From an uncultured Actinomycetota bacterium (GTDB lineage: Bacteria > Actinomycetota > UBA4738 > HRBIN12): a DNA stretch of 64,000 bases. The translations under genes were made by a program, and so were the position numbers. The DNA lies in contig CAVPCM010000011.1 of NCBI GenBank assembly GCA_963702405.1, positions 97,683-161,682 of the forward strand, given 5' to 3'. The first letter of the stretch is position 1. Every line of letters starts with the position of its first letter. This document shows positions 4,876 through 25,304 of the stretch, in pieces. The notes beneath the pieces are model-generated. The model did no database searches. It had not been told where the DNA came from and saw nothing but the letters and a program-made list of their open reading frames with translations.

Positions 4876-4879
4876 CGAC

Positions 4880-4986
4880 ACGATCACGACCATGTTGACG
4901 CACTACGCGCACGTGACGCCGGCCGCCTCGCGTCAAGCGGCGGATCGGCTGGCGGCGGTGCTCGACGAACGTTGACCGCCCCGCTT
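4880..4986 (+). pseudogene. tyrosine recombinase (phage integrase) C-terminal stub A (...LGDTITTMLTHYAHVTPAASRQAADRLAAVLDER*)
   Basis: hand translation of the plus strand; matches the catalytic-Tyr tail of integrases; no upstream integrase ORF found. Confidence 0.6.
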
Positions 4987-5050
4987 GGGGCATCTTTGGG
5001 GCACCCTGACGTGTGGTCGATTCCGAGTGGTTCGCGTTTCCGCAGGTAGA

Positions 5051-5111
5051 TGGTGTCGGAGGGGGGATTTGAACCCCCACCCCCTGTGAAGGGGACTAGG
5101 CCCTCAACCTA
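5051..5111 (-). repeat. direct repeat of the tRNA-Leu(GAG) 3' half including CCA (att-like boundary 1)
   Basis: tggtgtcggaggggggatttgaacccccaccccctgtgaaggggactaggccctcaaccta matches 15664-15733 and the 3' half of the tRNA at 24923-25008. Confidence 0.85.
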
Positions 5112-5362
5112 TGGGGGTACGTGGCAGGCAGTGTCGCTGGGTGTCGTCCGGTGCTCTGGCCTGCACCGATACGGGAGACCTAGTGGCGCTCGTGTCATGC
5201 CGTGGAGTCGTCTGCTTCGTCTCCTGGGGAAATGCTTGGGGAAACGGCTACGCCGGGAAGTCGAGCTGCCCCTGGCCGACTGCCATCTACCCAAGGGCTA
5301 GCGGAAGTGTCGGAACCCCCTCGTATGGTTTCGGGACTTCCCACGAGCAGGAAGGAGCACCC

Positions 5363-5902
5363 ATGGCCGACCAGTGGCCGCCGGTGATCATCTCCATCGC
5401 CGCGCTGCTGTTCACTGTTACGAGCTTCTGGTGGATCCATTGGCGTCGTGGGAAGCTCCAGGTTGCGGCACCACGGACCTACGCGGCGGCCGCAAGCACC
5501 GACAAGATGATCCTGTTGTTTCCGTTCGTCTTCCACAACACTGGCCCACGCGCCTATGTTGTGCGCGACCTACGCCTGCGCTTCACAGATGAGCCGGATG
5601 GTCGTCCGATGAACTGGGAGCGAGTGCGCGAGAGAATCCAGGCACCCGAGATGAGGTTCGCTGCCGGGTTCCCGGTGGCTGGAGGCGCGGCCATCCAGAT
5701 GTTCTGCGAGTTCGAGCGACGGCCTCCTAGTCGCAGCGTGGACGCGCGCGCCCATCCGCTGGTCCTCGAAGCGTTGACGGACAAGAACGATGAGTGGCGC
5801 ACCATCTCGGCGTTCAAGCTGCACATAAGCCCCAAGGACGCGGAGACCATGAAAGGAGGCGCCTTCATCCCGTTTCGGAATGAAGCTGATCATTTGCCCT
5901 GA
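5363..5902 (+). CDS. membrane-anchored hypothetical protein
   Basis: ORF 5111..5902 trimmed to MADQWPP..., which has an upstream ggaaggag RBS; TM helix IISIAALLFTVTSFWWI. Confidence 0.5.
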   Translation: MADQWPPVIISIAALLFTVTSFWWIHWRRGKLQVAAPRTYAAAASTDKMILLFPFVFHNTGPRAYVVRDLRLRFTDEPDGRPMNWERVRERIQAPEMRFAAGFPVAGGAAIQMFCEFERRPPSRSVDARAHPLVLEALTDKNDEWRTISAFKLHISPKDAETMKGGAFIPFRNEADHLP

Positions 5903-6063
5903 CCACGGGGTCTAGGTCGCCGAACAGCTCGCAGATCCGGTGGAACGTCTCCCAGTTCAGCCAGCGAGCGCCGGCGTCGATCTCTCGCCACGCTGATCGC
6001 GACCTCACGTGAGATCCGCCCGGGTGACGTTGTGCTCCCGGTACTCGCGGACGCTCACTCCGA
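5902..6063 (-). pseudogene. family-1 HTH gene copy 5, disrupted by an insertion of about 54 bp that carries an inverted family-2 junction 17-mer
   Basis: LGVSVREYRE ... IDAGARWLNWETFHRICELFG are separated by an insert containing ctcgccacgctgatcgc. Confidence 0.55.
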
Positions 6064-6070
6064 GGCGCCC

Positions 6071-7412
6071 CTACGGACAGGCCGCCCCGTTACAGGTTGC
6101 GAGGCGACCCAGGCGCCGGTGTGATCCGGACGGTGGCTCGTTCCCGGGGACGCCGTCCCGGTAGAGGTTCCTCAGTTGCCTGCGATCGTCGACCATGTCG
6201 TAGGCCTCGTGGGTGAGGTAGGTCCCGTCGAGGCGGTAGTACTCGATGTACTCGAGCGTCGGCGTGATGAACGCCTTCCACGTCGGCACGCGGAAGCCGG
6301 GCCAGCTGTAGAACTCGAGCAGAAGCTCCGAGCGTGGGTTCCCGAAGAGGCTGCGACCGTCGAGCACCTTGGAGGTGGGAACGCCCGCCAGGTCGAGCAA
6401 GGTCGTGGGAAGGTCCAGGAGGGCCACGATATTGGAGCGACGGCCGGGGGCGATCTGGCCGGGCCAGCTCACGTAGAGCGGGACCCTTACCGAGGGGATG
6501 TAGGGCGTGGTCTTGCCGACGAGTCCGTGGTCGCCCCACTGCATCCCGTTGTCGGAGGTGAACACGATGATCGTGTTCTCCTCGCCGGTCTCCTCGAGGC
6601 GCTGGCGCACCGCACCGAGCATGTCGTCGATGGACTTGAGCGAGCGGAGGACCTTATCCCGAGACCTGATGACGTGGTCGACATCCGGAGGTGTGATGGC
6701 TCTCAGCCATGCAGGCTTGTCGCTCCGATTCCTCTCGCTCGGCGGGGTGAACGCTGTCACGGGGAGATCGGCGTAGGCGGGCTCGGGCGTCCCCGGAGCG
6801 TGCGGTGTGATCGGGTCGATGAAGATCAGCCAGGGTGAGGCGTCGTCGGTCTCTGTCGATGCCAGGAAGCTCAGGGCGATCACGGAGGTAGTGGGTCGAG
6901 TACGTCCCATCCTGCGCTTCCTGCTCCCCGTTCACGTTCCACGGCTCGCCGCTGTAGTAGGCGCCGACGGAGGGCATGATGCCCCAGTCGTCGAAGCCCG
7001 CAGGCGCGATCTGCGGCCACCCGTTCAGGTACTTGCCGTAGAAGCCGGTCTGGTACCCGGCCGCCTTGAAGTCCGGGATCACGCTCTTGTCGTTCACGGC
7101 GTTGTACTCGTCATGCGTCAGGCTGCCCTTCGTGACGAGGTGGTTGTGGGTGTAGAGGCCGGTGAAGATGGAGGCGCGAGACGGGCAGCAGAACGGAGTT
7201 GTCGCATAGGCCCTGTCGAAGATCGCCCCTTCGGCGCCGAGCCTTCTAACCTCTGGCATCAACTGGAAGGTGCCGGTCGACCTCTGGTCGTCGGTCACTA
7301 TCACCAAGATGTTCGGGCGCTCCTCGGCGCTGGCCACAGTCGGCAATACGGTGGGGATGGATGCAGTCAAGGCGACCAAGAGGAGGACCGAGACTCTCTT
7401 GGGAAGTCGGCA
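6071..7412 (-). pseudogene. sulfatase (arylsulfatase family) with a frameshift near 6900
   Basis: N-terminal part has the sulfatase signature TTPFCCPSRASIFTG (ORF 6654..7538); C-terminal part ...TSDNGMQWGDHGLVGKT... in ORF 6071..6910. Confidence 0.7.
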
Positions 7413-8046
7413 TCCGAACACGGGACGGCGTTGAGTAGGTAGCAATCCCTTCACTGTTCTCCGTCCGCGGCGCGAGGATGCGTCATGATGTAGCTGTCGG
7501 CATGCACCGAAGGGCAATTGAGTGTGGTGACCACGCATCGGTCCGACCGGCGCGCGAGAGGCTCAGCCGCCGGTCCGTCCAAAGCTTGTTGAACCCTCGT
7601 ACCCCCGCCTTGAGGTCAGTTACCTCGCAAATTGTCTTCGGCCAATGTCTACTCGAGGACAGGCCGGTCTTTCGGTGAGCGCGGCGGCTCTCGTTGGGAG
7701 CACCGTCAGCCGGATGACCGGCGGGTAGGAGTCCGACAGCACCACGTCGAGCAGGTGGCGCGGGACGCTAGCAAGCATGAAGATCCCGGGGCCAGTCCAC
7801 AGATGGCCAAGCGCTGTCGCGATCCTGGTCGAGACGTGAGCGTGGGCTCGACTCGTGTCGCTTCTCTGCGGCTGAGGATCTTCATCCCCAATAGCGGTGA
7901 AGGAGTCCGGCCTCTCGGACGAGATCGACGTCGCGGTACGGCCTCCGGGGGTCTGGATGCCGCGATTTGACCCTCCCTCCCGCTCGGGGTAGCGTGGGGC
8001 TCACGACTTACGACGATCGGCGTAGAACCCGTTTGGGGAGGGACCC

Positions 8047-8583
8047 ATGAGACGAGCTCAGGTTGTTGTGTCACTCATCCTATTCACGTTGGGAGCGTGG
8101 GTATCGGCCGCGGCGCCGGCAGCAGCCGTCGCTCCGATCCCGGAACCGTACGGTCCGTCTTCGGCCGGCGGATCGGTCGCCGGGACGTACCCGGCCGGCG
8201 TCGCCTGCCCCTTCGCCGTCTCGTTGGAGATCGTCTCGGGAGGCACCGGTCAGCAGTTAACGTTCGTCGACCGAAACGGTGACGTCGTTCGCATCTTCAA
8301 CCGAGTGACGCCCTCGACGTGGGTGATCACGAACCTCGACACCGGGGAGTCTCACTCCCTCCAGCTTCCGGCCGGCACAGGCAGGATTACCTTCGCGGCG
8401 GACGGCACCACCACGGTCACCATCACCGGGGGTGCGATCGGGTTCAATTCCCCAACGGACACGCCTCCGGGCCCGTTCTCGCTGACCAACGTCGGTCGGC
8501 TCGTCTTCGTGATCGCCCCGGATGGAACTGGAACGCTCTCTTTGCGGGGTGACCAGACCGACCTCTGTGCCACGGTCAACTAA
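8047..8583 (+). CDS. secreted hypothetical protein
   Basis: ORF track; N-terminal signal peptide. Confidence 0.5.
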   Translation: MRRAQVVVSLILFTLGAWVSAAAPAAAVAPIPEPYGPSSAGGSVAGTYPAGVACPFAVSLEIVSGGTGQQLTFVDRNGDVVRIFNRVTPSTWVITNLDTGESHSLQLPAGTGRITFAADGTTTVTITGGAIGFNSPTDTPPGPFSLTNVGRLVFVIAPDGTGTLSLRGDQTDLCATVN

Positions 8584-8869
8584 CGTCCGACCTCGCGGGA
8601 GCCGTCGCCACCACCTCCGTCAAGCTGCGAGCCCCCGCTCCGCTCCGGTAGAACCGCCGGACGAGGTGGCCGTGCACCAGCACGGCGTCGCCCTTGGCGA
8701 TCCCGTCGATGGTCCGGGCGCCGACCGTCGCGTGCCACGCCGCGACCGGGAGGGGGAGGAGGCGTCGTCCCGCCTCCGGAACGGACAATCGGAGCTCCGT
8801 GACCTCGTCTCCCGACGGCATCCGCCGCTGCACCGGATCCGCGGCGACCGTGCCCGCGAGCACGACCAC
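8576..8869 (-). CDS. short SSB-like OB-fold ssDNA-binding protein (no acidic tail)
   Basis: MVVLAGTVAADPVQRRMPSGDEVTELRLSV...WHATVGARTIDGIAKGDAVLVHGHLVRRFYRSG...EVVA pattern resembles an SSB N-domain. Confidence 0.45.
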   Translation of the reverse strand: MVVLAGTVAADPVQRRMPSGDEVTELRLSVPEAGRRLLPLPVAAWHATVGARTIDGIAKGDAVLVHGHLVRRFYRSGAGARSLTEVVATAPARSDVS

Positions 8870-8973
8870 GTACCCATTAGGGCGCTACGAAGGAGGGACT
8901 AGCGGTCCGACGGACGATGCCTCAGGATGCCCCGGTGAGGGACGGATGGGCGTCCCCGGAGGGGGTCGATCCA

Positions 8974-9086
8974 TGAAGTTCGAGAAGTGGTCTGAGGCAA
9001 GCACGTCAACCCAGGTCGTCCGTATCGTGTCCGCGGTGGCGGTAGTGATGATCCTCTTCATGTTCCTGTACGCCTTCGTCTTCTAG
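8974..9086 (+). CDS. small single-TM protein (MKFEKW...VVMILFMFLYAFVF)
   Basis: inner Met of ORF 8694..9086. Confidence 0.3.
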
Positions 9087-9087
9087 C

Positions 9088-9160
9088 GAACGTCTGCGCT
9101 TCAGGCGCCGAGGTCCCGGATCGCGCGGAGCAGCCGCAGCCGCAGCCGCAGCCGAATAAC
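9088..9160 (-). repeat. chimeric junction: family-1 terminal stub (gaacgtctgcg) fused to a family-2 3' fragment with a (CAGCCG)4 expansion
   Basis: gaacgtctgcgcttcaggcgccgaggtcccggatcgcgcggagcagccgcagccgcagccgcagccgaat. Confidence 0.6.
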
Positions 9161-9177
9161 CTCCTACGCTGAGCGGG

Positions 9178-9561
9178 ATGTTGCGGGGCCTACTGATCGC
9201 GGTGGCGATCGCAGCCGTCCTCTGGGTCGGTGCGATCCTCGTCTTGATCGCGGCGGGCAGGCGAACGCAAGCGCGGGAGCTAGCCGTCCTGATCCCGAAT
9301 CTTCTGTTCCTCTTCCGGGGTCTCCTCAAGGACGAGCGCGTCCCACGCAGCTCGAAGCTCTGGCTCGGCTTCGCGGTGGCCTGGATCGTGTCGCCCATCG
9401 ACCTGATCCCTGAGTTCATCCCCGTCGCGGGGCCGCTCGACGATGCGATCGTGGCCGTCGTTGTCTTGCGCCACGTTCTCAGGCGGAGTGAGCGAGCCGT
9501 GATTGAGGCCCACTGGCGAGGTGATCCGAAGACGCTCGAATCGATCCTTCGCTTCGTGTGA
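9178..9561 (+). CDS. DUF1232 (YkvA-like) membrane protein
   Basis: motif SPIDLIPEFIPVAGPLDD. Confidence 0.65.
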   Translation: MLRGLLIAVAIAAVLWVGAILVLIAAGRRTQARELAVLIPNLLFLFRGLLKDERVPRSSKLWLGFAVAWIVSPIDLIPEFIPVAGPLDDAIVAVVVLRHVLRRSERAVIEAHWRGDPKTLESILRFV

Positions 9562-9563
9562 GA

Positions 9564-9640
9564 TTCACCCGACCGCCGAGGTCCCTGATCGCCCGGAGCA
9601 GCCGCAGCCGGATCACCTCGTCGTCATCGGCCATCGCGAA
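9564..9640 (-). repeat. family-2 gene 3'-end fragment (...MADDDEVIRLRLLRAIRDLGGRVNLT)
   Basis: ccgaggtccctgatcgcccggagcagccgcagccggatcacctcgtcgtcatcggccatcgcg. Confidence 0.6.
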
Positions 9641-9739
9641 CGGAAGAGAGGCCTCACATGCGGGGCGCTTGGACCTTGGGCACGCGAGCCTGCGTTGGCA
9701 CCCGAGATTGGGTCGCGACTAGCATGAGTCACTGCACAA

Positions 9740-10624
9740 GTGGCCGAAGGAGACGGTATGACACCGTCCCAAGGGTTCGACCCAGCCGAATACAAGCGGA
9801 ACATCCGGAGGGAGTGGCGATCCGCCGCCACGGGCTGGCGCAAGTGGCTCGACGTAGTCGAGGCCCAAGAGGGCGGGCAGCGACACAGTGCCAAGTTGGT
9901 CGAGCTCGCCGAGCTACAGGTGGGCGCATCGGTCCTCGACGTAGGCGGCGGCTACGGGGAGCCGAGCCTAGCCGCGGCACGTGTGGTCGGCCCGCAGGGG
10001 CGGGTCGTCTGCACCGATATCTCCCCCGAGATGCTCGCGGTGGCCCGCGAGCGAGCCGCCGACGCTGGAATCACGAATGTCGAGTTCGTTGGGCGGGACG
10101 CGGAGGAGCTCGCATTCGACGAGGGGAGCTTCGATGCGGTCCTCAGCCGAGCTACCCTCATGTTCCTGCCGGACGTGGCAGGCACCCTGAAGCGACTCCG
10201 CGGTTTCCTCAAGTCCGCAGGTCGGCTCGCGGCATCGGTCTGGGGGCCGCAGCCGCTCGTGGAGTTCTCGACCGCTTTCCCCGTCATCGCGGAGGAGCTC
10301 GCTTTGCCCTCTCCACCTCCGGGACGGCCGGGAGCGTTCGCGCTCAGCGATCCCACCTGGGTTGCCGAACTCGTGGCGCAGGCTGGGTTCCGGGACGTCG
10401 AGACCGGCACCGTGTCGGTCATCTTCGTGACCGACTCGCCCGAGCAGTACACGGAGTTCATCCGTGACGTCGCGCCCCAGCTGACCACCCTCTTGGGCGA
10501 CCAGCTGGCCTCCGTGCAGGAGCGCGTTTGGGCGAAGGTTACTGACGCCTACCGTCGGTTCCAGGGCGATGACGGGCGTGTTCGCACCGAGAACCAAGCC
10601 ATCTGGGTCAAGGGGATCAAGTAG
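9740..10624 (+). CDS. class I SAM-dependent methyltransferase
   Basis: motifs VLDVGGGYG ... VVCTDISPEML ... FDAVLSRATLMFLPD. Confidence 0.8.
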   Translation: MAEGDGMTPSQGFDPAEYKRNIRREWRSAATGWRKWLDVVEAQEGGQRHSAKLVELAELQVGASVLDVGGGYGEPSLAAARVVGPQGRVVCTDISPEMLAVARERAADAGITNVEFVGRDAEELAFDEGSFDAVLSRATLMFLPDVAGTLKRLRGFLKSAGRLAASVWGPQPLVEFSTAFPVIAEELALPSPPPGRPGAFALSDPTWVAELVAQAGFRDVETGTVSVIFVTDSPEQYTEFIRDVAPQLTTLLGDQLASVQERVWAKVTDAYRRFQGDDGRVRTENQAIWVKGIK

Positions 10625-10662
10625 GCCGCGCCAGGTCTAAGCCCCCTTCGGGCCAGGGGTAG

Positions 10663-10917
10663 CTAGCGATTCATGCTGTGCCTGAGGTCCCGGATCGCCC
10701 GCAGCAGCCGCAGCCGGACGACCTCGTCGGTGTCAGCCATCGCGATCAGCGTGGCGAGGTCCCCGGCGGCGGGTCGCGCCTTCTGCGCCCGCAGGACCGC
10801 TGTGCGGTAGGTCGAGGTTCTCTCCAGGACGCGGCGCAGCTCGGCGAGCGCCGCAGGACCGAGCGTCGCCAGGTGGGAGCGGATGTCGGCATCCTCGTCG
10901 AAGGGATCAGCGATCAT
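10663..10917 (-). CDS. family-2 small protein, complete copy (MIADPFDEDADIRSHLATLGPAALAELRRVLERTSTYRTAVLRAQKARPAAGDLATLIAMADTDEVVRLRLLRAIRDLRHSMNR)
   Basis: ORF 10663..10965 trimmed to the Met whose ATG overlaps the stop of the upstream gene (ATGATCGCTGA). Confidence 0.6.
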   Translation of the reverse strand: MIADPFDEDADIRSHLATLGPAALAELRRVLERTSTYRTAVLRAQKARPAAGDLATLIAMADTDEVVRLRLLRAIRDLRHSMNR

Positions 10918-11170
10918 CTCGGCGCTCTCTGCGGCGACGGTGCCGGCGCACCACGCCCAATCCAAACCACACCACCGCCCCGAGGATCGCGGAGACCAAG
11001 GCCACGAGCCAAAGAGGCGAGGTGTAGCTCCACACGAGGAAGTCCAGCTGCGCGCTCTCGGTGTTCTGGACCATGAATACGAGCAGGAGTCCTACTCCAG
11101 TGAGCGATGCAATCGCTCCACCACCGAGTCGGCGTCCCTCCGACTTAGAGCTTGGCCTTTGCATGACCAT
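10907..11170 (-). CDS. LapA/DUF1049-like small membrane protein, translationally coupled to the family-2 gene
   Basis: ORF track; two TM helices and an Arg-rich tail. Confidence 0.45.
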   Translation of the reverse strand: MVMQRPSSKSEGRRLGGGAIASLTGVGLLLVFMVQNTESAQLDFLVWSYTSPLWLVALVSAILGAVVWFGLGVVRRHRRRRERRDDR

Positions 11171-11226
11171 CCCCCTCCAGGATCTGGAAGCACGAAGCAG
11201 AGTCTAGGTGGGCGCGATGAGCCGGA

Positions 11227-11319
11227 TCAGCACCCTTTCGCGCGGTCAGCCAACGCCGCAGAGCCGAGCACCGCCAGGTGGGAGCGGACGGCGGCGTCCA
11301 CGTGGTGAGGATCAGCCAT
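11227..11319 (-). pseudogene. family-2 gene 5' fragment (MADPHHVDAAVRSHLAVLGSAALADRAKGC*)
   Basis: hand translation; its start overlaps the stop of HTH copy 6. Confidence 0.55.
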
Positions 11320-11420
11320 GCACGAACGACCGCGGCCAGCCGTACAGCTTGCAGATCCGATCCCAGGTCCGAACGTCGGCGAGCCAACCCGGGTCTGCGA
11401 ATGCATCGCACCCCCGCTCG
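11312..11420 (-). pseudogene. family-1 HTH gene 3' fragment, copy 6 (...ADPGWLADVRTWDRICKLYGWPRSFVHG*)
   Basis: stop TGA overlaps the family-2 ATG (catggctga). Confidence 0.55.
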
Positions 11421-11440
11421 GATCGTGCCAAGATCAACCC

Positions 11441-11731
11441 ATGGGTGAGACTGTGGCAGAAGGCGGGCCCGAGCCTCGTGAGTCTCCTCTCAGCGATGCC
11501 GTCCTCGACACCATGCGCGGAGCTCTGCGTATCTTCGGCGGGATGGTGCAGATGGCGGCGGGCATCACGAGGTTGTTAGCCGTTGCGGTGCTCAAGGCTG
11601 CGGCAGCAGCAGAGGACGCTGTGGAGGCGACGGAGGAAGATGAAGACAAGTCAGGCCGCCCGGTGAGCCCGCGGAGTAGAACCAAGAAGGAAGCGGAAGT
11701 GGTTGAGCCAGATGCCTCCTCCCCCCGCTGA
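11441..11731 (+). CDS. small acidic hypothetical protein
   Basis: inner Met (MGETVAEGGPEPRESPLS...) of ORF 11318..11731. Confidence 0.3.
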   Translation: MGETVAEGGPEPRESPLSDAVLDTMRGALRIFGGMVQMAAGITRLLAVAVLKAAAAAEDAVEATEEDEDKSGRPVSPRSRTKKEAEVVEPDASSPR

Positions 11732-11734
11732 GGG

Positions 11735-11818
11735 CGAACGCCCGCGGCCAGCCCCGAACAGCTTGCAGATCCAGTCCCAGATTCAGTCCCACGTCTCCTA
11801 GTTCGGCGATCGTTCCCT
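11735..11818 (-). repeat. family-1 HTH gene 3' fragment, copy 7 (degenerate)
   Basis: gaacgcccgcggccagccccgaacagcttgcagatccagtccc...tcccacgtctcctagttcggcgatcgttccc. Confidence 0.5.
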
Positions 11819-11974
11819 CTTACCTCGGCATGACAACTGCAAGGGCGGCCACAAGAGCGATGACTGCCACCATGGCGATCAGCATCCCCCGAGCGCTCAG
11901 ACGGCTGACGAGCCTCGGGATCAGGCCGAGCAGTTCGAAGATCGACTCCAAGATCACCACGGGCGAACCCCTAG

Positions 11975-12178: not shown

Positions 12179-12193
12179 TCGGGAGTGCGGCCA

Positions 12194-12460: not shown

Positions 12461-12486
12461 AGGTCCAGTCCTCCCCCGGTCGAGAC

Positions 12487-17847: not shown

Positions 17848-18399
17848 CTAGCTCAGCAGAGCGCACGCGTCCTGCACGTTGTTCGGCAACTCGGTGAGGA
17901 AGAAGCCCTCATCCGAGATAATCGCCGTGAACGGTCCGTGCACCAGCAAGAGCTCTCCCGGCCGGTCGGTGATGAACAGGTGCAGCCACGTCCCTGAGCC
18001 CCGGAGCTCCGTCGAGCCGTCCGGTAGGAAACGGTACTGACCGGGTCCGGAGATGTTGAAGAGGACGGAGTGCTCGGGTGCCTCCTGGTTTGTCAGTCGC
18101 ACCTGCAGCGCTCCCGTGACGCTCTGGCGGACCACTTCTCCATCCTTGTCGTAGTAGGTGGTGAGCACCTCGTTGTTCTTCACGAACTCGACCGAGATGT
18201 CGAATGTGCAATGCCCCGTCAGAACGAAGTCCTCGACTGGGAGCGGTTCGCGTGTCGGGGGCGTCGCGTGTGCCGCTGCGGGCATCAAGATGATCGCTAC
18301 TGCTGCTGCCGCCGCCATGACGAGTCGTCGCATGGGGTACCCCTGTCGATAAAGAGCTGTCCGATGTCCTGGACGAGCTACTTGATGACGTTCATTCAT
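17848..18399 (-). CDS. secreted hypothetical protein (paralog of 18512..18982)
   Basis: signal peptide; conserved Cys pair and ...DACALLS tail. Confidence 0.55.
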   Translation of the reverse strand: MNERHQVARPGHRTALYRQGYPMRRLVMAAAAAVAIILMPAAAHATPPTREPLPVEDFVLTGHCTFDISVEFVKNNEVLTTYYDKDGEVVRQSVTGALQVRLTNQEAPEHSVLFNISGPGQYRFLPDGSTELRGSGTWLHLFITDRPGELLLVHGPFTAIISDEGFFLTELPNNVQDACALLS

Positions 18400-18511
18400 G
18401 CCAACCCCTGCTAATCAAGATCGAAGATGCTCGCGTGCCGGAAGATAAAGGGATCAGGGCCGGACATCGCTGCCCGGCCCAAACCCCGTTTGGGGGATCA
18501 AACGCGCCCGG

Positions 18512-18982
18512 CTACTTCGTGAGCAGCCGGCACGCACGAGTCGTGTCGACTGTGTGCCGTGGCTCTAGGATGACCTCCCCGGTCGTCAGGTCGACCTTCA
18601 ACACCCCGGTGAAGTCGAACGGGAGCTGGCCCACGACCATCAAGATGACCGTACCGTCGGGAGTCACCCGGACGAGATCGATCCCGACGTCCTTGAACCG
18701 CACCCGGTTGTCGCCAGCACTCGCCAGGAGATCCACGTGGACCGAAGTGATGTCCTGGACCCCGACCGGTCGATCGGGAAAGGCCAGGAATGTGATCCGA
18801 CCGTTGAGCGTCGTCGTCACATCGACCCCACAGGCGTCGCTCAGGAACTCGTCGTCGAACGTGTCGGAGAACGTGATCGTCTCCCGTTCGGGCAGAACGG
18901 CCCATGCTGCAGCGGTCCCGAGAGCCACCGACAGCAGCGCAAGCCCGATCACCAACGATCCGGTTCGTGCGTGTTTCTTCAT
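18512..18982 (-). CDS. secreted hypothetical protein (paralog of 17848..18399)
   Basis: signal peptide; ...DACGVD... and ...RACRLLTK tail. Confidence 0.55.
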   Translation of the reverse strand: MKKHARTGSLVIGLALLSVALGTAAAWAVLPERETITFSDTFDDEFLSDACGVDVTTTLNGRITFLAFPDRPVGVQDITSVHVDLLASAGDNRVRFKDVGIDLVRVTPDGTVILMVVGQLPFDFTGVLKVDLTTGEVILEPRHTVDTTRACRLLTK

Positions 18983-19130
18983 GCCAGACCCCCTATCGCG
19001 CCCACGGCGCCCGAGGCCATGCTGGCTGGTCCCACGCGCTTATGCAAACTGGCTGCACTGCAGCCAACATCAGCGTCCTACGAAGAGCGGCGTACGTATT
19101 TCGCTGTGGCGGAAACAGACAACACCTCGC

Positions 19131-19321
19131 TCAATACGCGGCGGGAACCCCGTCGCGACATTGACCGGTCCGCGGCCTGGGCCGAGCCGTGAGCGCCCGG
19201 AGGATCTCGGTGCGGGCCGTTGAGGGGGCTTCGAGGAGGAGGCGCAGCTCGGCGAGCGTCGCGGGACCGAGCGCAGCCAGGTGGGAACGACGTCGGCGCC
19301 CTCGTCGAAGGGATAAGCCAC
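19131..19321 (-). pseudogene. family-2 small gene copy with frameshift (MAYPFDEGADV / SHLAALGPATLAELRLLLEAPSTARTEILRALTARP...)
   Basis: two overlapping ORF-track frames, 19070..19321 and 19131..19745. Confidence 0.55.
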
Positions 19322-19333
19322 GGAGCGGCGAGC

Positions 19334-19681
19334 CTAAGCCGTGCGGGAGCGCGGCGTGCGGACGACGGCCGGGAGGGCCAGCACTGCCACCAAGAGCGGG
19401 ACGAACACCAGGCTCGTCGGCAGGAGTGAGAACGCGGCCATCATCGCCCACCCCGCCTGCCGAGCCCTCCGAGCGAGCGGGTGCTGCGGGCGTTCGATCC
19501 CGAACATGAACACGAGTGCACCGCCGAAGCCGACGATCGAGATTGCGAGCCAGACGACCGACCCCGTATCTAGGAACGTGGAGAACACGAGCGCCCCGAG
19601 GAGTAGGAAGAAACTCGCGACGAGGCGGGCGACCCACCACCACGCGGTGGACAGAGTCCAAGACTCCCTCGCGGTGTCCAC
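19334..19681 (-). CDS. small polytopic membrane protein
   Basis: ORF track. Confidence 0.45.
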   Translation of the reverse strand: MDTARESWTLSTAWWWVARLVASFFLLLGALVFSTFLDTGSVVWLAISIVGFGGALVFMFGIERPQHPLARRARQAGWAMMAAFSLLPTSLVFVPLLVAVLALPAVVRTPRSRTA

Positions 19682-19697
19682 ACCTGCACGGTACGCC

Positions 19698-19757
19698 TAG
19701 GCGAACGTCTGCGGCCAGCCGAACGTCTTGCAGATCCGGTCCCACGTTCTCGAAAGC
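19698..19757 (-). repeat. family-1 HTH gene 3' fragment, copy 9 (LSRTWDRICKTFGWPQTFA*), flanked by stops
   Basis: gaacgtctgcggccagccgaacgtcttgcagatccggtcccacgttctcgaaagc. Confidence 0.6.
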
Positions 19758-19850
19758 TAGGCGAGCGAGCCCAGGCAGGTCGTCGCGAGTAATCCAACTT
19801 TCCCATCTTCGCGTGTGGGATTAGGTCGGGCAGCTTGTCCTACTCCACGG

Positions 19851-20648
19851 CTAGTCATCCCGGATGGCTGTGCGAGGGACCACGTGGCGCTCCCAGGACC
19901 CCCCGGAACTTCGCCAGACAACCGCACCGCCTTCGGCCGAGGCTGCCACCCAGACTGTGGTGATCTCGGATGGAAGGGACGGGGCTTCGTCGGCTGGCTC
20001 GTCCGTAAGATTCATCCCCAGGCTCGCTTCGAAGAGCCCATCTATCCATATGAAGACGTGCTTCTCGTGCCCACTTGCCCGCTCAAGCTTCGCTCGCTCG
20101 CCGCGCAGTCGATCACCGGATAGTGCGCTCTGTACTGCCTCATGAGTGTTACCAGTCCACGCGACGCCACCCTCGGATGGAGGCATGATCGAGATGTACG
20201 TGTCCCCCTCGGTGCCTGACGAGTTCGCAAGCCGGACCGGCAGCCGTTCGATTGGCATCATTACAGCGTCACGAGGAATCCATCGGCGCTTCTCGAACCG
20301 ACTCATGCCACGTGCCTCGAGATCCCGCAGGGCATCCACGAAGGCTTGAAGCGTCTCCTTGCTCTTGGGCACACCGATCGCTTCATCGGTCAGCGCTACG
20401 TACCAGTTGTGCTCGAGACCGGATCTGGAGCGCACGCCGTGCTTCCCGATCCACGCGATCAGCCGCTGACGATCCTCATCCATCAGCATCGTGACCTCGA
20501 GAGCACCGACGACTTCGGACCCGCGCATCACGTCGAAATCATGAGTGCCACCGGGTGCACCTGCTACGTCGCGGGGTATCAGTTGAACTGGCTCGATGGC
20601 TTCGACAACGCGACGCGCAGCGTCCTCTTCACGGCGTTCGCGGCCCAT
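19851..20648 (-). CDS. hypothetical protein
   Basis: ORF track. Confidence 0.4.
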   Translation of the reverse strand: MGRERREEDAARRVVEAIEPVQLIPRDVAGAPGGTHDFDVMRGSEVVGALEVTMLMDEDRQRLIAWIGKHGVRSRSGLEHNWYVALTDEAIGVPKSKETLQAFVDALRDLEARGMSRFEKRRWIPRDAVMMPIERLPVRLANSSGTEGDTYISIMPPSEGGVAWTGNTHEAVQSALSGDRLRGERAKLERASGHEKHVFIWIDGLFEASLGMNLTDEPADEAPSLPSEITTVWVAASAEGGAVVWRSSGGSWERHVVPRTAIRDD

Positions 20649-20917
20649 CCCCGGGGGACCCTCCCCAAGCGCAGCTCCTAGATGTGAACCGTACAGCTTC
20701 CGAGGTGCCGACCATTCCCTCGCGCGGCCCGACCGACCAGCCCGCCCGCTTCCGATCCTGCTCGAGCATCTTCGAGAGCATCGCTATTGCGAGAAGAGGC
20801 TAGGCCAGGGCGACGATGGGGCGCCTGGGCCAAACGGGATTGGTGAAGACGCCTGCGGCCCACACCCGCTCCTATCGGCCTCCCGCATACGATGAGCCAG
20901 TGGATCGGTCTGGTGAG

Positions 20918-20980
20918 CTCGAAGCCGGCGGCCCTGAGGATCGACAACTCGAAGCCGGCGGCCCTGAGGATCGACAAGCG
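20918..20980. repeat. 30-bp tandem duplication (ctcgaagccggcggccctgaggatcgacaa x2)
   Basis: read directly. Confidence 0.8.
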
Positions 20981-21012
20981 GACCCCGATCGCGTTACGCA
21001 GGTGTTCATCCC

Positions 21013-21936
21013 ATGCCCTTACAAGGGGAGCCCCAGAGTTCTAGGGTGGAGGAGGCATCGAGCGAGGGGGGAACCGCGATGGCAGAGGTCACAGTATCGA
21101 CCAAGCCCGACACGATCGTGATGATCCACGGGCTGTGGATGACGCCTCGCAGCTGGGAGCACTGGAAGGAGCGCTACGAGGCGCGTGGCTACTCCGTCCA
21201 CGCACCGGCGTGGCCCGGTTTCGAGGTCGAGGTCGAGGCGCTGAACGCGGACCCATCCCCGATGAATGAGCTGGAGGCCGAGACGGTCATCGACTCCTAC
21301 GAGACGTTCATCAACGACCTGGACTCGGACCCGATCATCATGGGCCACTCGCTGGGCGGCGCGATGACGCAGGTGCTGCTCAACCGTGGTCTCGGGAGCG
21401 TCGGCATAGGCCTTTCGGCCGCGACGGTAAAGGGCATTCGGGATCTCCCGTGGTCCACCCTGAGAGCTGCGGCCCCTGCCCTCAACCCGTTCAAGCGTGG
21501 GAAGCCCGTCCCCATGACCGAGAAGGAGTTCCACTACGCCTTCGCGAACACGATGAGCGAGGAGGAGTCGAAGCCGCTCTGGGAGCGGTACTGCGTTCCT
21601 GCAGCGACCGGCGTGCTCGCCGACATCGCGCTCGCGAATCTCCATCGGAACCCGCCGACCGAGGTCGACTTCGCTAAGGAAGGTCGCATCCCGTTGCTGT
21701 TCATCGGCCTCAGCGAGGATCACGTCGTACCGCCCAAGGCCACGATGCATAACGAGCGGAAGTACGACGACTCGGTCTCGATCACGGAGTACCGAGAGTT
21801 CGAGGGGCGTCCCCATTTCCCAGGCGCGCCGGGATGGGAGGAGGTCGCCGACTTCGCGATCGACTGGGCCGAGCGCCACGCCGGCCTGACGGTTGCCGAC
21901 CACGCTTCTGCCAAGGATCCCGCGTCGGCGAGCTGA
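21013..21936 (+). CDS. alpha/beta hydrolase fold protein
   Basis: IVMIHGLWMT ... IMGHSLGG nucleophile elbow; true start may be MAEV at 21079. Confidence 0.75.
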   Translation: MPLQGEPQSSRVEEASSEGGTAMAEVTVSTKPDTIVMIHGLWMTPRSWEHWKERYEARGYSVHAPAWPGFEVEVEALNADPSPMNELEAETVIDSYETFINDLDSDPIIMGHSLGGAMTQVLLNRGLGSVGIGLSAATVKGIRDLPWSTLRAAAPALNPFKRGKPVPMTEKEFHYAFANTMSEEESKPLWERYCVPAATGVLADIALANLHRNPPTEVDFAKEGRIPLLFIGLSEDHVVPPKATMHNERKYDDSVSITEYREFEGRPHFPGAPGWEEVADFAIDWAERHAGLTVADHASAKDPASAS

Positions 21937-21939
21937 CGA

Positions 21940-21987
21940 TCAGACGCCGAGGTCGCCGATCGCGCGGAGCAGCCGCAGCCGGATCCC
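21940..21987 (-). repeat. family-2 gene 3'-end fragment (short)
   Basis: tcagacgccgaggtcgccgatcgcgcggagcagccgcagccggatccc, begins 4 bp after the hydrolase stop. Confidence 0.6.
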
Positions 21988-22044
21988 GCAACGCTCCGCT
22001 CACTGGCTGGAGCTATGGTGAAGTCGCCGGGAGAGGGAGTCGGC

Positions 22045-22510
22045 ATGGCCGGAGGCAAGGCGCGCCTACCACCGCGGTGGTTCATCGTGATCTTCTGGCA
22101 CGGGCACCGACTGTTCGTCCGGGCCACCGGGGGGGCGCAAGGGGCTGTGGCCTCCGCGCCCGGGGAAGTATGGCGCCCTGCGACTCACCACGAGGGGCCG
22201 GCGCAGCGGCGAGTCGCGGAGCGTGATCGTCGGCTACTACGAGGACGGGGCCAACCTGGTCTCGATGGCCATGAACGGCTGGGGAGCGGCCGAGCCGGAC
22301 TGGTGGCTGAACCTGCAGGCCAATCCGGAGGCCCTCGTCGAGCTGGCCGGTGGGAGCCGGCGCGAGGTACTCGGAGGGCCGCGGCGGCGAGGAGCATGAG
22401 CGGCTGTGGCGGCGCTGGAGTGAGCTGGACAAGAACCTCGACGACTACGCCGCGCGACGCCCACAGGGAACGGCGGTCGTCGTCCTCGAGCCGCGCGTGG
22501 CGGCCGATTG
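22045..22510 (+). pseudogene. deazaflavin (F420)-dependent nitroreductase family protein (DUF385/PNPOx-like) with at least 2 frameshifts
   Basis: PPRWFIVIFWHGHRLFVRATGG / GKYGALRLTTRGRRSGESRSV...AEPDWWLNLQANPEALVEL / EEHERLWRRWSELDKNLDDYAARRPQGTAVVVLEP in three frames. Confidence 0.5.
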
Positions 22511-22526
22511 AGATCGCTGGAGCAAC

Positions 22527-22617
22527 TAGACGCCGAGATCCCGAATCGCCCGGAGCAGCCGCAGCCGAACGACCTCGTCGGTGTCGGCCATCGCGATCAG
22601 CGTGGCGAGGTCAGCGC
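22527..22617 (-). repeat. family-2 gene 3'-end fragment; its junction lies 3 bp from the stop of the 22621..23226 gene
   Basis: ctagacgccgagatcccgaatcgcccggagcagccgcagccgaacgacctcgtcggtgtcggccatcgcgatcagcgtggcgaggtc, identical to the end of the complete copy at 23712. Confidence 0.75.
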
Positions 22618-22620
22618 CGG

Positions 22621-23226
22621 TCAGATCATCGAGAGGTGCTGTTCAACTGCTGAACGGACGAAGGCCACCCGATCCATGATCGAACCGGGCTGAACGATGT
22701 CGAGGACGTAGCCTGCCCGCTCGTAGACCTCCTTGAGCGACCTGCTGAACGACACCGTGTCTTCGAACGTCATGACCCGCTCCTCGTCGGTCGCGTAGAT
22801 CTCCTCCCAGGGCTCGAGGAGAAGTACGTGAGGGTGATAGCGATAGTCCTCGGCGGCCTCAAGGCTTGGACGGGGGTCTACCCCGGCTCGGACCGCGTAG
22901 ACGATGCAATCAGGAATCCCCCGATCGAAGATGAAGGGGCCTCCTAGTCGGCGCGCCGTCTGATACTTCTCGATCGACCGTTGAAGGAGCAGGTGAGTGA
23001 ACAACGGTGGGTCTTGGTCCCATGTGCCCCTGCCACCGGTCGCACGTTGCTCTGCCAGGATCTCTCGGGCAGGTTCGTCCACGCATCTGAACTGGTCACC
23101 AAGCCGACTCAGGATCTCGGTCTTCCCGGACCCGGGTGCACCCGTGAGGATGAACAGCGCAGATGAAGCGTGACCCACGGAAGGAAGGCTAGTCCGATGG
23201 TCCGCGCGGTCAGGTAGTGCCGTCAC
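22621..23226 (-). CDS. P-loop NTPase (AAA_28-like ATPase)
   Basis: Walker A LTGAPGSGKTE. Confidence 0.65.
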   Translation of the reverse strand: MTALPDRADHRTSLPSVGHASSALFILTGAPGSGKTEILSRLGDQFRCVDEPAREILAEQRATGGRGTWDQDPPLFTHLLLQRSIEKYQTARRLGGPFIFDRGIPDCIVYAVRAGVDPRPSLEAAEDYRYHPHVLLLEPWEEIYATDEERVMTFEDTVSFSRSLKEVYERAGYVLDIVQPGSIMDRVAFVRSAVEQHLSMI

Positions 23227-23255
23227 TAGAGGGTCGTCCTATTTGTTCATCCCAC

Positions 23256-23341
23256 CCCGAAGTCGCGGATCGCGCGGGGCAGCCGCAGCCTGACGACGTC
23301 GTCGGTGTCGGCCATCGTGATCAGCGTGGCGAGATCAGCGA
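23256..23341 (-). repeat. family-2 gene 3'-end fragment; its junction lies directly at the stop of the cupin gene
   Basis: ccgaagtcgcggatcgcgcggggcagccgcagcctgacgacgtcgtcggtgtcggccatcgtgatcagcgtggcgagatc. Confidence 0.7.
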
Positions 23342-23671
23342 TCAAGCGAGCGCCGACCGATAGCGGCCCCACACGGCCTTGCTGTCATCAGCGCTCATCG
23401 GCTGATGGAGCTTGTCGATGAGTTCCGCGATCTCGGGACTCATCACGGCGAGGACATGCGCGCCTCCCCGAGTGGCGAAGGTGTGAACGGCTCCACGAGG
23501 AACCACGATGGACGTCCCCGGGGGAACCTCGTGGCGTACCCCATCGACTTCAACCTCGAGATGGCCGTCGAAGCAGATGAACGCTTCCTCGCCGCCGTGA
23601 TGCACATGGAGTGGAGCTTGATCGCCCTGGCCCGCATCCAGCCGCCAGTCCCTGATAACGAAATCGGGCAT
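23342..23671 (-). CDS. cupin domain protein
   Basis: ORF track; LHVHHGGEEAFICFDGHLEV...HTF two-His cupin motifs. Confidence 0.7.
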   Translation of the reverse strand: MPDFVIRDWRLDAGQGDQAPLHVHHGGEEAFICFDGHLEVEVDGVRHEVPPGTSIVVPRGAVHTFATRGGAHVLAVMSPEIAELIDKLHQPMSADDSKAVWGRYRSALA

Positions 23672-23711
23672 GGGTTCGGATATTAGCTTCGGCGGTGCGG
23701 TCGGCTAGGGG

Positions 23712-23951
23712 CTAGACGCCGAGATCCCGGATCGCTCGGAGCAGCCGCAGCCGAACGACCTCGTCGGTGTCGGCCATCGCGATCAGCGTGGCGAGGTCCG
23801 CGGAGGCAGGCCGCGCAGTGAGCGCTCGAAGGATCTCGGTGCGGTAGGTCGAAGGAGCCTCGAGGACGCGGCGCAACTCCGCGAGCCCCGCAGGGCTGAG
23901 CACCGCCAGGTGGGAGCGGATGTCGGCGTCCTCGTCGAAGGGATCAGCCAT
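23712..23951 (-). CDS. family-2 small protein, complete copy (MADPFDEDADIRSHLAVLSPAGLAELRRVLEAPSTYRTEILRALTARPASADLATLIAMADTDEVVRLRLLRAIRDLGV)
   Basis: ORF track; reference copy for the family-2 repeats. Confidence 0.65.
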   Translation of the reverse strand: MADPFDEDADIRSHLAVLSPAGLAELRRVLEAPSTYRTEILRALTARPASADLATLIAMADTDEVVRLRLLRAIRDLGV

Positions 23952-23969
23952 GCGGTGACGGCCGTCAGG

Positions 23970-24791
23970 CTAGTCCTCAAGCATCCGACGCTTCGCAGCT
24001 TCGAACTCTTCGGGCGACAGCAAGCCCTCCTTTCGGAGGTCGGCAAGCTTGAGCAGCTGATCAGCCAGGTCCGTCTGGGCGGCCTTCTGAGAGACGTTCT
24101 CCGAGGGTTTCCGCACGCGACCGAAGACGGCCGATAGTTGGATCCTCAGCTGATCGGGTGTTGCGTGCCCGTAATGGAAGAACGCCTCCGCATCCGAGGC
24201 TTGGAGCCGCAGGACTGTCTCCATATGTGAGGAAGTCGAAGCAGCGTTGAGTAGCGCGGCTATCGCCATCCCCGTGATAGCGCCTTCGAATCCGAAGCCG
24301 CCTCCGATGAATCCTCCTCCGCTCGTCACCTCCCCCCTGCCAGAGATATCGAGCCCCTCTATCGAGTCATAAGGGATCCGCACTGCCGTGACGTAGTCCT
24401 TGACGACCACGAGACCTTCTTGGTCGAACAGGAGGTCGTAGGCCTGGGCGGGGTTGAGAGCGAGACCATGTCCCCCGAGGAAGAGGCTCTGTCGCATGAC
24501 GGCGAGGCCACTAGCCGCCCGCTGTCGCCACTCCTCCGCTTGCATGTCTCCGCGGACTCTCGAGAGTTCTCTCTCCGCCCGCCTGGGCTCTAACTCAGCG
24601 AACGCTTTGAAGGCTTGGGCCCAGCCTGCTTCGGTCAAAGGGAACTTCTCAACGACCTTTCTCTCGGACGTTCCGGTCCCGATCGAGAAGAAATCATCCC
24701 CCCTTCCCTTCGTGTAGTGGAGCACGTATTTATCTCCGTAGAGCACCCCGTAGAACTTGGTCCTGGGGAGGGGTAGCTTTGGCATCGACAT
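23970..24791 (-). CDS. SHOCT-domain protein (C-terminal ...LADLRKEGLLSPEEFEAAKRRMLED)
   Basis: ORF track; glycine-rich central segment. Confidence 0.6.
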   Translation of the reverse strand: MSMPKLPLPRTKFYGVLYGDKYVLHYTKGRGDDFFSIGTGTSERKVVEKFPLTEAGWAQAFKAFAELEPRRAERELSRVRGDMQAEEWRQRAASGLAVMRQSLFLGGHGLALNPAQAYDLLFDQEGLVVVKDYVTAVRIPYDSIEGLDISGRGEVTSGGGFIGGGFGFEGAITGMAIAALLNAASTSSHMETVLRLQASDAEAFFHYGHATPDQLRIQLSAVFGRVRKPSENVSQKAAQTDLADQLLKLADLRKEGLLSPEEFEAAKRRMLED

Positions 24792-24870
24792 CTACTCCCA
24801 CGTGGTCCCCAGCATGAAGACCGACGCCACGCAGCTCGTCGCTGACGCCTTGACGTCCAAGCGTTAGACC
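24785..24870 (+). pseudogene. tyrosine recombinase C-terminal stub C (...GIDIYSHVVPSMKTDATQLVADALTSKR*)
   Basis: hand translation; matches the ...ITLDTYSHVLPSMQ... integrase tail; about 50 bp from the tRNA 3' end. Confidence 0.5.
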
Positions 24871-24922
24871 ATCCGTTGGACGGGAGCGCCCCGGGCAATC
24901 GTCGCTCGGGGCGTTTGTACGT

Positions 24923-25008
24923 GTCGGAGGGGGGATTTGAACCCCCACCCCCTGTGAAGGGGACTAGGCCCTCAACCTAGCGCGTCTACCAAGTTCCGCC
25001 ACTCCGAC
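24923..25008 (-). tRNA. tRNA-Leu(GAG), class II (long variable arm), CCA not encoded
   Basis: hand fold: acceptor GTCGGAG/CTCCGAC, anticodon stem CTAGG-ttGAGgg-CCTAG, variable arm CCCCTTCACAGGGGG, T-arm GGGGGTTCAAATCCCCC. Confidence 0.85.
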
Positions 25009-25263: not shown

Positions 25264-25304
25264 GACACGTTCCTCCCGGCGCCGTGAGCCAGCGAACTCG
25301 TGGC

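Follow-up and report, generated by a model that had tools for sequence, protein, structure and literature searches.

Three stacked islands with integrase tails at a tRNA-Leu(GAG) gene of an uncultured Actinomycetota bacterium

A stretch of 64,000 nucleotides from an uncultured Actinomycetota bacterium (contig CAVPCM010000011.1 of assembly GCA_963702405.1, positions 97,683 to 161,682; hereafter the window) contains three islands stacked at a tRNA-Leu(GAG) gene, each of which retains the C-terminal tail of a tyrosine integrase. The tRNA-Leu(GAG) gene is complete and is located by ARAGORN at 24921-25008 on the minus strand. It is matched by Rfam RF00005 at 24922-25008 on the same strand (52.6 bits), and it is the one tRNA gene of the window according to both. 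The secG gene (approximately 25036-25266, minus strand), which is recognized from its translation and from Pfam SecG in syntenic loci, lies directly upstream of the tRNA gene. The gene order tRNA-secG-opp ABC is common to four related loci (L002, L005, L092 and L093), of which L005 has its secG gene identified from the translation. ARAGORN and Rfam thus confirm the complete tRNA gene beside secG that an initial annotation, made from the sequence alone, had placed here.

The 3' part of this tRNA gene is present in three copies. The copy within the gene itself (58-59 nt, 24921-24979, minus strand) begins at the 5' strand of the anticodon stem and ends with the discriminator base. The same part is repeated without a mismatch at two displaced positions on the minus strand, namely the direct repeats DR1 (5053-5111) and DR2 (15677-15734). 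Two non-overlapping 20-25-mers match only the tRNA gene, DR1 and DR2 in the window, while no match is expected in shuffled sequences. The tRNA gene and the displaced fragments downstream of it are in the same orientation, so that the arrangement by which Islander defines an island at a tRNA gene (tDNA) is found here with three exact copies. These copies are the attachment (att) cores of three islands. The core in the tRNA gene marks the tRNA-proximal junction of island A (15735-24920, 9.2 kb), which lies between DR2 and the tRNA gene. DR2 separates island A from island B (5112-15676, 10.6 kb), and DR1 separates island B from island C (1-5052), which runs off the left edge of the window. No fourth att copy that would close island C is found in the window or in the further 566 nt to the left in a near-identical contig. 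DR1 and DR2 share an extra 13 nt, CGCAGGTAGATGG (5041-5053 and 15665-15677 respectively), which are lacking in the tRNA copy. CCA is not encoded by the current tRNA gene, which ends with ...CTCCGACA followed by CGT. DR1 and DR2 end with ...ACA followed by CCATCT and therefore carry CCA (5050-5053 and 15674-15677). Thus, the exact repetition of the tRNA 3' half described in the initial annotation holds for the cores, but not for CCA, which is present at the distal copies and absent from the gene.

A custom hidden Markov model (HMM) of the integrase C-terminus, built from 205 sequences and covering 86 positions, was searched against the 1398 six-frame stop-to-stop peptides of the window. Only three matches below E=0.3 are detected in the whole window. 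Each of them contains the box with the catalytic tyrosine, reaches the end of the model, and is located on the plus strand 50-400 nt to the left of its att copy. Stub 1 (24778-24867 including the stop codon) represents approximately the last 28 codons of an integrase, hereafter A-type, and ends with ...GIDIYSHVVPSMKTDATQLVADALTSKR. Its HMM match (24778-24852, positions 62-86) has an E value of 1.6e-3, and its identity is confirmed by a longer homologue of 54 aa in L092 (HMM positions 42-84, E=1.5e-14). Stub 2 (15115-15276 including the stop codon), which begins with AEIALAAGVRLDVVSRQLGHASIATTGDIYTHD, represents approximately the last 53 codons of an integrase of the L005/P0061 type. It is matched by the HMM at 15115-15261 (positions 37-85, E=5e-23), is 74.5% identical to residues 341-391 of P0061 in a tblastn comparison, and gives a match to positions 141-171 of the 172 positions of Pfam PF00589 with an E value of 6e-5, which is under the gathering score. 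Stub 3 (4859-4975 including the stop codon; ...RLGDTITTMLTHYAHV...) represents approximately the last 37 codons of a third integrase (HMM match at 4859-4963, positions 51-86, E=1.7e-4), in which the conserved histidine of the LGH box is replaced by aspartate. Pfam alone gives no match for stubs 1 and 3, for which the custom HMM and the L092 homologue are required. The three different tyrosine recombinase tails preceding the att copies, as read in the initial annotation, are therefore established by the HMM, with their coordinates corrected to those given above.

The sequences at which the three stubs are cut differ from one another. Stub 1 is cut at the start codon of an antisense gene encoding a SHOCT-domain protein (23970-24791). 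Stub 2 is cut just 3' of the HxxR box and adjoins a 66-nt tandem repeat counted as three copies (14931-15116; 2.8 copies with 88% matches according to Tandem Repeats Finder). Stub 3 is joined at 4859 to an N-terminally truncated gene of the opposite strand, which encodes an Xre-type helix-turn-helix (HTH) protein (4746-4859, minus strand). These different partners, namely a repeat, the start of a SHOCT gene and an Xre fragment, point to independent events. When four full-length relatives were compared with the window by tblastn, no N-terminal integrase sequence was found in any frame. The N-terminal residues, approximately 340 in number, are truly lost and not merely frameshifted; the initial annotation had noted that roughly 300 N-terminal residues are missing from each tail. 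Of the complete R..HxxR..Y domain of a functional tyrosine recombinase, only the tyrosine box is present.

The lengths of the relatives of stub 2 depend on how they are searched for. A word-indexed protein search returns only matches of 44-93 aa, which would suggest that all homologues of stub 2 are short. This suggestion is ruled out by an exhaustive search, in which full-length relatives are detected, namely P0061 (392 aa), P0073 and P0086. The uniformly short matches are largely due to the search method and to fragmentary contigs, because a word-indexed search with short queries returns nearly only short entries, and a uniformly short list does not represent biology. Among the viral contigs of IMG/VR, the nearest integrases are at most 53% identical over part of the tail. 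A phage or satellite origin was considered and rejected, since no close relative of the integrase tail is found in IMG/VR.

Short motif pairs, which resemble the arm-type sites of integrases, flank the cores and are specific to each island; all of those in the window are given here on the plus strand. The integrase-proximal end of island B contains two copies of TGGGGAAAT with a spacing of 11 nt (15600-15619; copies at 15600 and 15611), and its distal end contains TGGGGAAAT together with the one-base variant TGGGGAAAC (5225-5245; copies at 5225 and 5237), 114 nt from DR1. Exact TGGGGAAAT sites are present three times in 64 kb, as compared with 0.07 expected, and all of them are at the ends of island B. 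Likewise, the three CGTTAGAC sites in 64 kb are all at the ends of island A. Its integrase-proximal pair (24862-24881), which is conserved in L092 and L093, consists of CGTTAGAC at 24862 and the variant CGTTGGAC at 24874, and its distal pair (15838-15857) consists of two copies of CGTTAGAC at 15838 and 15850. The stop codon of stub 1 overlaps the first of the integrase-proximal sites. Island C has an integrase-proximal pair of TTGGGGCA (4985-5003), to the left of DR1. The integrase-proximal arms of islands C and B align with those of L002 and L005, and all four share the order of a motif pair, approximately 55-65 nt, CGCAGGTAGATGG and the tRNA end. Because island-specific arm pairs are present at both ends of islands A and B, the repeats bound discrete elements and are real att sites of these elements.

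An intact counterpart of these elements is present in L005, the Actinomycetota metagenome-assembled genome SMAG_U13301. In this genome an element of 8.4 kb is located between a 73-nt tRNA fragment and tRNA-Leu(GAG)-secG-opp. A full-length integrase gene of 385 aa is located at the tRNA-proximal end, reads toward the tRNA gene, and occupies the position of the stub. The backbone of the element contains HTH_3 and HTH_17 genes before the integrase gene, a Prim-Pol/AAA_25 replication module and an HNH gene. No FtsK/SpoIIIE-type domain is found among the 10 scanned open reading frames (ORFs) of the element, in which the replication module consists of Prim-Pol and AAA_25 only. The integrase-proximal arm pair of L005 (11132 and 11143) is homologous to that of island B. 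The TGGGGGAA pairs of L005 are located 115 nt from the distal core and approximately 70 nt from the tRNA end, and the corresponding distances in island B are 114 nt and approximately 70 nt. The agreement of the arm spacing of island B with that of L005, together with the homology of the island C arm, indicates that islands B and C probably derive from L005-type elements. The distance between the integrase stop codon and the arm-type sites is approximately 10 nt in L005 and in island C, and 320 nt for stub 2. When all the proteins of the L005 element were compared with the window by tblastn, stub 2 was the sole match.

A counterpart of island A is present in L093, which is approximately 75% identical to the window over the core. 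It contains a nearly full-length A-type integrase gene of approximately 340 aa beside the tRNA gene, with the same CGTTAGAC pair. Residues 32-355 are encoded in one frame and are followed by a frameshift and then by the tail. The region upstream of this gene is too poorly coding for a description of the A-type element.

A close relative with a different arrangement is the JGI contig L092, whose core matches that of the window with 98.4% identity over 10 kb. Its order is an amino-acid permease gene, a tRNA-derived repeat termed DR0, island C', one att core, island A', the 54-aa integrase tail, tRNA-Leu and secG. Island C' (3.1 kb) corresponds to 120-1785 and 3766-5052 of the window, and island A' is 4.35 kb in length. 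The single internal core of L092 is flanked by the left flank of DR1 on one side and by the right flank of DR2 on the other side. Thus, the 10.6-kb island B is absent from L092 exactly at the att cores, giving a junction of the C arm, the core and the distal arm of A. Comparison with relatives had been suggested in the initial annotation, and it is this precise absence that it reveals. By the Islander test of absence in a relative, island B is missing from L092, and islands A and C are present in an altered form. DR0, with a TGGGGGAAT pair 115 nt away, closes island C' beside the chromosomal permease gene, and the sequence to the left of DR1 is therefore a third island. The native flank of DR0 (2589-2595) also carries CCA after the displaced tRNA 3' end. 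CCA thus follows the distal copies and is present in the flank of DR0, whereas CGT follows the tRNA gene in the form rebuilt by the A-type element. A CCA-encoding tRNA gene was therefore turned into a CCA-less one by integration.

The structure of the window itself is reproduced in the independently assembled sister-sample contigs L008, L009 and L010 at 99.5-99.9% identity. Of these, L010 spans both DR1 and DR2 at 99.9% identity. These contigs differ by single-base insertions or deletions at 13976, 15975, 21957, 22129, 22372, 22385 and other positions, which split genes: the F420H2 quinone reductase gene, which encodes 155 aa in L008, is divided between two ORFs in the window, and in L010 the cyclase-like gene encodes 530 aa. 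These differences suggest either long-read homopolymer errors or very recent pseudogenization. The contigs of the source and sister samples (ENA ERZ250395xx, 'contig_N') have the appearance of long-read assemblies, so that some pseudogenes may be sequencing errors. The stubs are unaffected by this noise, because their missing sequence is absent in all frames.

Integrases of the same kinds are eroded to different extents in the relatives. At the tRNA-proximal position, approximately 340 aa of the A-type integrase are left in L093, as compared with 54 aa in L092 and only 28 aa in the window. To obtain counts for the stub 2 family, JGI metagenomes were scanned with C-terminal patterns, the retained part of each integrase was measured by tblastn, and loci at least 50% identical to the family with enough upstream sequence were counted. 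Seven loci are full length, four begin at residues 73-126, and approximately eight are C-terminal remnants beginning at residues 224-332. Remnants are located beside tRNA-Leu(GAG) in L018, L019, L027 and L028, and beside tRNA-Met in L001. The tails of the window begin at residues 341, approximately 355 and approximately 366. These starts form a continuum and there is no fixed boundary. A scan of genome contigs with an alignment of full-length integrases, in which N-terminal patterns were used, gives three loci only. The tyrosine box is the most recognizable part of an integrase. The survival of tails alone is accounted for by geometry, because the integrase gene is the terminal gene reading toward the att site, and a deletion from the inside that spares this site, and in the case of stub 1 also the tRNA gene, leaves the 3' tail. 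The loss of the same part of three integrases, which was called unexpected in the initial annotation, is thus explained by this geometry, and it is not a loss of exactly the same part, since the truncation points (HMM positions 37, 51 and 62) and the junction partners differ and the relatives are graded.

The islands have also been exchanged in part. The integrase tails of island A in the window and in L092 (10083-10165) are only approximately 80% identical, with changes mostly at third codon positions, whereas the identity is 98% in the tRNA/secG flank and in the distal 2 kb of island A. This difference indicates that the tRNA-proximal element was exchanged at least once: in one of the lineages, a different A-type element has taken the place of the tRNA-proximal part of island A, and the locus has been repeatedly re-invaded. 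The interior of island A is 7.1 kb in the window as compared with 2.3 kb in L092. Island C of the window contains 1.98 kb that is absent from L092, with one breakpoint inside a copy of an Xre gene. As cargo, island A encodes an alpha/beta hydrolase, an AAA_28 NTPase, a split F420H2 quinone reductase, a SHOCT protein, and small secreted or membrane proteins, and no integrase backbone besides stub 1. Island B contains a sulfatase fragment, a gene for a single-stranded DNA-binding (SSB)-like protein, DUF1232, a methyltransferase gene and a cyclase-like gene, and no Prim-Pol, AAA_25 or HTH_17 backbone gene remains in it. A reading of the islands as defence islands was rejected, as PADLOC gives only weak HTH and AAA matches.

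These results are most probably explained by successive site-specific integrations into the 3' half of the tRNA gene, followed by loss of the integrase genes from inside and by mosaic replacement of the cargo, which left islands without integrase genes in which attL and attR are retained. In this lineage, the tRNA-Leu(GAG) gene that follows secG would be a hot spot for small tyrosine integrase elements. The attP site of each element would carry a copy of the tRNA gene from the anticodon stem to the 3' end, so that integration would rebuild the tRNA gene and displace the former 3' part outward. In this way, at least three elements would have been stacked, from the outside to the tRNA gene: C, then B, then A. 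Elements C and B would be of the L005 type, with TGGGG-A-A arm sites, and element A of a different type, with CGTTAGAC arm sites. In each, the integrase gene would be the last gene, reading toward the att site, with its stop codon located 10-90 nt ahead of the arm-type sites. Once integrated, the elements would have been immobilized and then eroded through deletions and replacements in their interiors. As long as the att site is spared, such a deletion would remove the integrase gene from its 5' side only and leave a recognizable 3' tail. The end state would be three integrase-less, att-flanked islands, similar to cis-mobilizable elements (CIMEs), with unrelated and partly broken cargo genes. 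We infer that the elements arrived in the order C, B, A, that the stubs were made by deletions rather than by another process, and that the islands are no longer self-mobile. The three stacked, decayed islands with integrase tails that the initial annotation proposed are well supported by the exact cores, the arm pairs, the intact counterparts L005 and L093 and the precise absence of island B. As to their boundaries, those of islands A and B are marked by arm pairs at both ends, and island C is bounded only in L092 and is open at the window edge.

Several points weigh against this history. No integrase-bearing copy of island A, B or C itself is found, and the former full-length integrases are deduced from homologous arms and tails. 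Islands B and C have arms and an integrase tail homologous to those of the intact L005, and no intermediate with the same cargo is found. Only tails and arms survive of the L005-type backbone, and the interiors may have been replaced rather than eroded. The exchange of the island A tail makes the history more complex than a simple vertical decay. The survey with C-terminal patterns is blind to remnants that retain only the N-terminal part, and the asymmetry of the loss is therefore argued from geometry. L092 is a metagenome contig, and it may have been mis-joined across a 70-nt repeat. A substitution that is private to L092 in its internal att core, together with differences from the window elsewhere in the locus, argues against a chimeric join.

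A different explanation, to which we give a small but real chance, is that the integrase tails are part of a functional att-proximal module, that the integrase-less islands are still mobile by an integrase supplied in trans, and that selection keeps their ends. Island B has two perfect 70-nt cores and both arm pairs at the spacing of the intact L005, and relatives with 98% identity differ precisely in whether they contain this integrase-less island. In L005 and island C the integrase stop codon is followed by the arm sites at a distance of approximately 10 nt, and in island A the stop codon is inside the first site. The clade also contains both types of integrase at full length. However, the tails differ in length, with 25, 36 and 49 matched codons, and those of the relatives form a continuum from residue 73 to 341. 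In island B, the 320 nt between the stop codon and the arm sites place the tail outside the arm, which argues that the tail is not the selected part. Stub 3 is without its conserved histidine. The presence and absence of island B equally fits an integration with later deletion of the integrase gene, or RecA-dependent recombination between the 70-nt repeats. It is accordingly rather improbable that island B is a non-autonomous element still moving between att copies by means of an L005-type integrase acting in trans. If it were so, the arrays of Xre-HTH genes in the window and in L027 would record a long cycle of accretion and cis-mobilization, which assembles and shuffles cargo at a tRNA gene in uncultured Actinomycetota.

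These Xre-HTH genes are one of two repeat families of the locus, and both families are pieces of minus-strand genes, that is, diverged paralogues. Family 2 (F2) encodes an Xre-type HTH protein of approximately 60 aa (...EIEAGERxPxFETWDRICKLYGWPQTF), and an intact copy in L011 is matched by Pfam HTH_31 with an E value of 5e-12; another intact copy is present in L092. At least ten copies or fragments are located in the window between 1733 and 20769 in one orientation, and all are truncated or frameshifted (1733-1904, 2714-2776, 3421-3570, 4746-4859, 5919-6067, 11315-11371, 11754-11817, 12002-12176, 19700-19747 and 20722-20769, minus strand). A similar F2 array is present in the unrelated contig L027 (27-2999), upstream of an integrase remnant at tRNA-Leu(GAG). 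In the P0061 contig, a 75-aa HTH_31 gene is divergent from the full-length integrase gene, and the fusion of stub 3 with F2 is in the same orientation. The F2 genes are therefore plausibly regulators that once adjoined integrases, and their abundance suggests that integration took place more often than the three surviving cores indicate. Family 1 (F1) encodes a 79-aa protein, sometimes annotated as GntR-like, with more than 230 homologues in Actinomycetota metagenomes and no Pfam match. Two intact F1 copies (10663-10917 and 23712-23951) and eight fragments (9104-9145, 9551-9640, 11245-11343, 17459-17638, 19176-19289, 21943-21984, 22529-22618 and 23253-23342) are located on the minus strand of the window. 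The stop codon of an F2 copy overlaps the start of an F1 copy at 11312. The C-terminal 30-aa pieces of F1 are also found directly 3' of unrelated genes, for example the AAA_28 gene at 22621.

It is very unlikely that homologous recombination between dispersed F1 or F2 copies replaces the interiors of the islands and leaves their ends. The ends of the islands are common to the window and L092 while the interiors differ, one indel end (1785) is inside an F2 copy, and the breakpoint between A and A' (17667) is located at the 3' end of an F2 gene of L092. Stub 3 is fused to an F2 fragment, and the F2 array of L027 also lies upstream of an integrase remnant. However, the repeats are pieces of 60-170 nt with 65-89% identity and are poor substrates for homologous recombination. 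No observed breakpoint has both ends in repeat copies at matching positions, stubs 1 and 2 abut neither F1 nor F2, and repeat recombination inside tandem elements would not truncate an integrase gene. An att-proximal module that survives turnover by the two repeat families had been suggested in the initial annotation. This suggestion is not borne out: the repeats are diverged paralogous genes, of which only one abuts a stub (stub 3), and although the interiors do turn over, with one breakpoint inside an F2 copy and another at the 3' end of an F2 gene, no recombination between F1 or F2 copies is evident at the breakpoints observed between the window and L092.

There is next to no chance that the integrase is partitioned as in SSV, with its N-terminal part at the other end of the island, or that the triple repeat is an artefact of assembly; attP-spanning integrases exist, for example those of SSV1 and Mx8 (as cited in PMC4383910), and the source contigs resemble long-read assemblies with indel noise, but the cores lie 50-400 nt downstream of the integrase stop codons and hence outside each frame, no N-terminal integrase fragment is present in the window, the intact integrase of L005 is complete on one side of its att site, and the structure is reproduced at 99.5-99.9% identity in L008, L009 and L010, the last of which spans DR1 and DR2.

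Successive integration with subsequent loss of the integrase genes is a known process. In the ICESt1/ICESt3 family of Streptococcus thermophilus, CIMEs and tandem accretion have been described (Pavlovic 2004 and Bellanger 2011, as reported in PMC5704250), and integration, decay to a CIME and accretion of a further element form a described sequence (PMC5704250). The islands of the window resemble these CIMEs in that the integration genes are lost, attL and attR are kept, the islands are stacked in tandem at one site, and integrase remnants are left. Cores and arm pairs are retained at both ends of islands A and B, and of the mobility genes only the integrase stubs are found, with no homologues of Xis/HTH_17, Prim-Pol or AAA_25. 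They are unlike the CIMEs of ICESt1/ICESt3 in that the host is an uncultured actinobacterium, the target is tRNA-Leu(GAG) and the layers are three rather than two. The probable parents are small Prim-Pol/AAA_25 elements without recognizable conjugation genes. The FtsK/SpoIIIE-type transfer protein and replication module of an actinomycete integrative and conjugative element (AICE) are lacking: none is found in the scanned proteins of islands A and B and three ORFs of island C, which represent part of the ORFs.

Like the tDNA islands of Islander, the islands of the window have a full tDNA, displaced direct 3' fragments and an anticodon-centred crossover sublocation. Of the 3919 islands of Islander/TIGER, 125 are in arrays of at least two and 4 in arrays of at least three (PMC4383910). 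Islander demands an integrase ORF for each island (PMC4383910), and unlike its islands those of the window would fail this filter, as 25-50 codons are left. The L005 element and the A-type element of L093 resemble the islands in the tRNA-secG locus, the position of the core, the homologous arms with their spacing and the integrase C-termini, but differ in that they keep a full or nearly full integrase, and L005 keeps its HTH_3, HTH_17, Prim-Pol and AAA_25 backbone. In 'grounded' or defective prophages (PMC6379469), loss of the integrase similarly immobilizes the element and the interior is then mosaically replaced, but the islands of the window are without phage structural genes. They are also similar to accreted pathogenicity islands, such as that of Streptomyces (Zhang and Loria 2017, as cited in PMC5704250).

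The array most probably represents a known process, namely accretion in tandem with subsequent decay, in a lineage of uncultured Actinomycetota, without a new mechanism. It is a clean and well-bounded example, for which relatives provide the same integrases in an intact, a half-eroded and a nearly erased state. Such arrays are missed by island finders that depend on an integrase ORF, and short integrase tails beside tDNA fragments are usable markers of old integrations. Island B provides a concrete test case for the mobilization in trans of integrase-less islands flanked by att sites.

Close relatives of the integrase are also found beside tRNA-Met(CAT) instead of tRNA-Leu(GAG), at L001 9959-11004, L006 10001-11020 and L014 1906-3253. 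The L001 copy is a 59-aa stub located 43 nt from the start of an HTH_17 gene, which is the same kind of deletion junction as that of stub 3. A 39-nt repeat (GATGTACGCCGCCGTAGCGTGACCGGGGTCACGCGGCCA) is present in four copies over 1.5 kb in L029 (373-1885) and L030 (2616-4128). The fourth copy is located where the homology to integrases stops on the 5' side (matches starting at residues 117-126), and the island concerned is 4.7 kb in length and adjoins tRNA-Leu(GAG). The 22-aa repeats (GYAQGGQPGSFPDLNTGIREGS) that are encoded by the 66-nt tandem repeat next to stub 2 belong to a minus-strand ORF of 94 aa, which extends antisense into stub 2 and has no family match. In island A, a perfect tandem repeat of 2 x 30 nt (20918-20977) is located between the gene for a 265-aa protein and the alpha/beta hydrolase gene.

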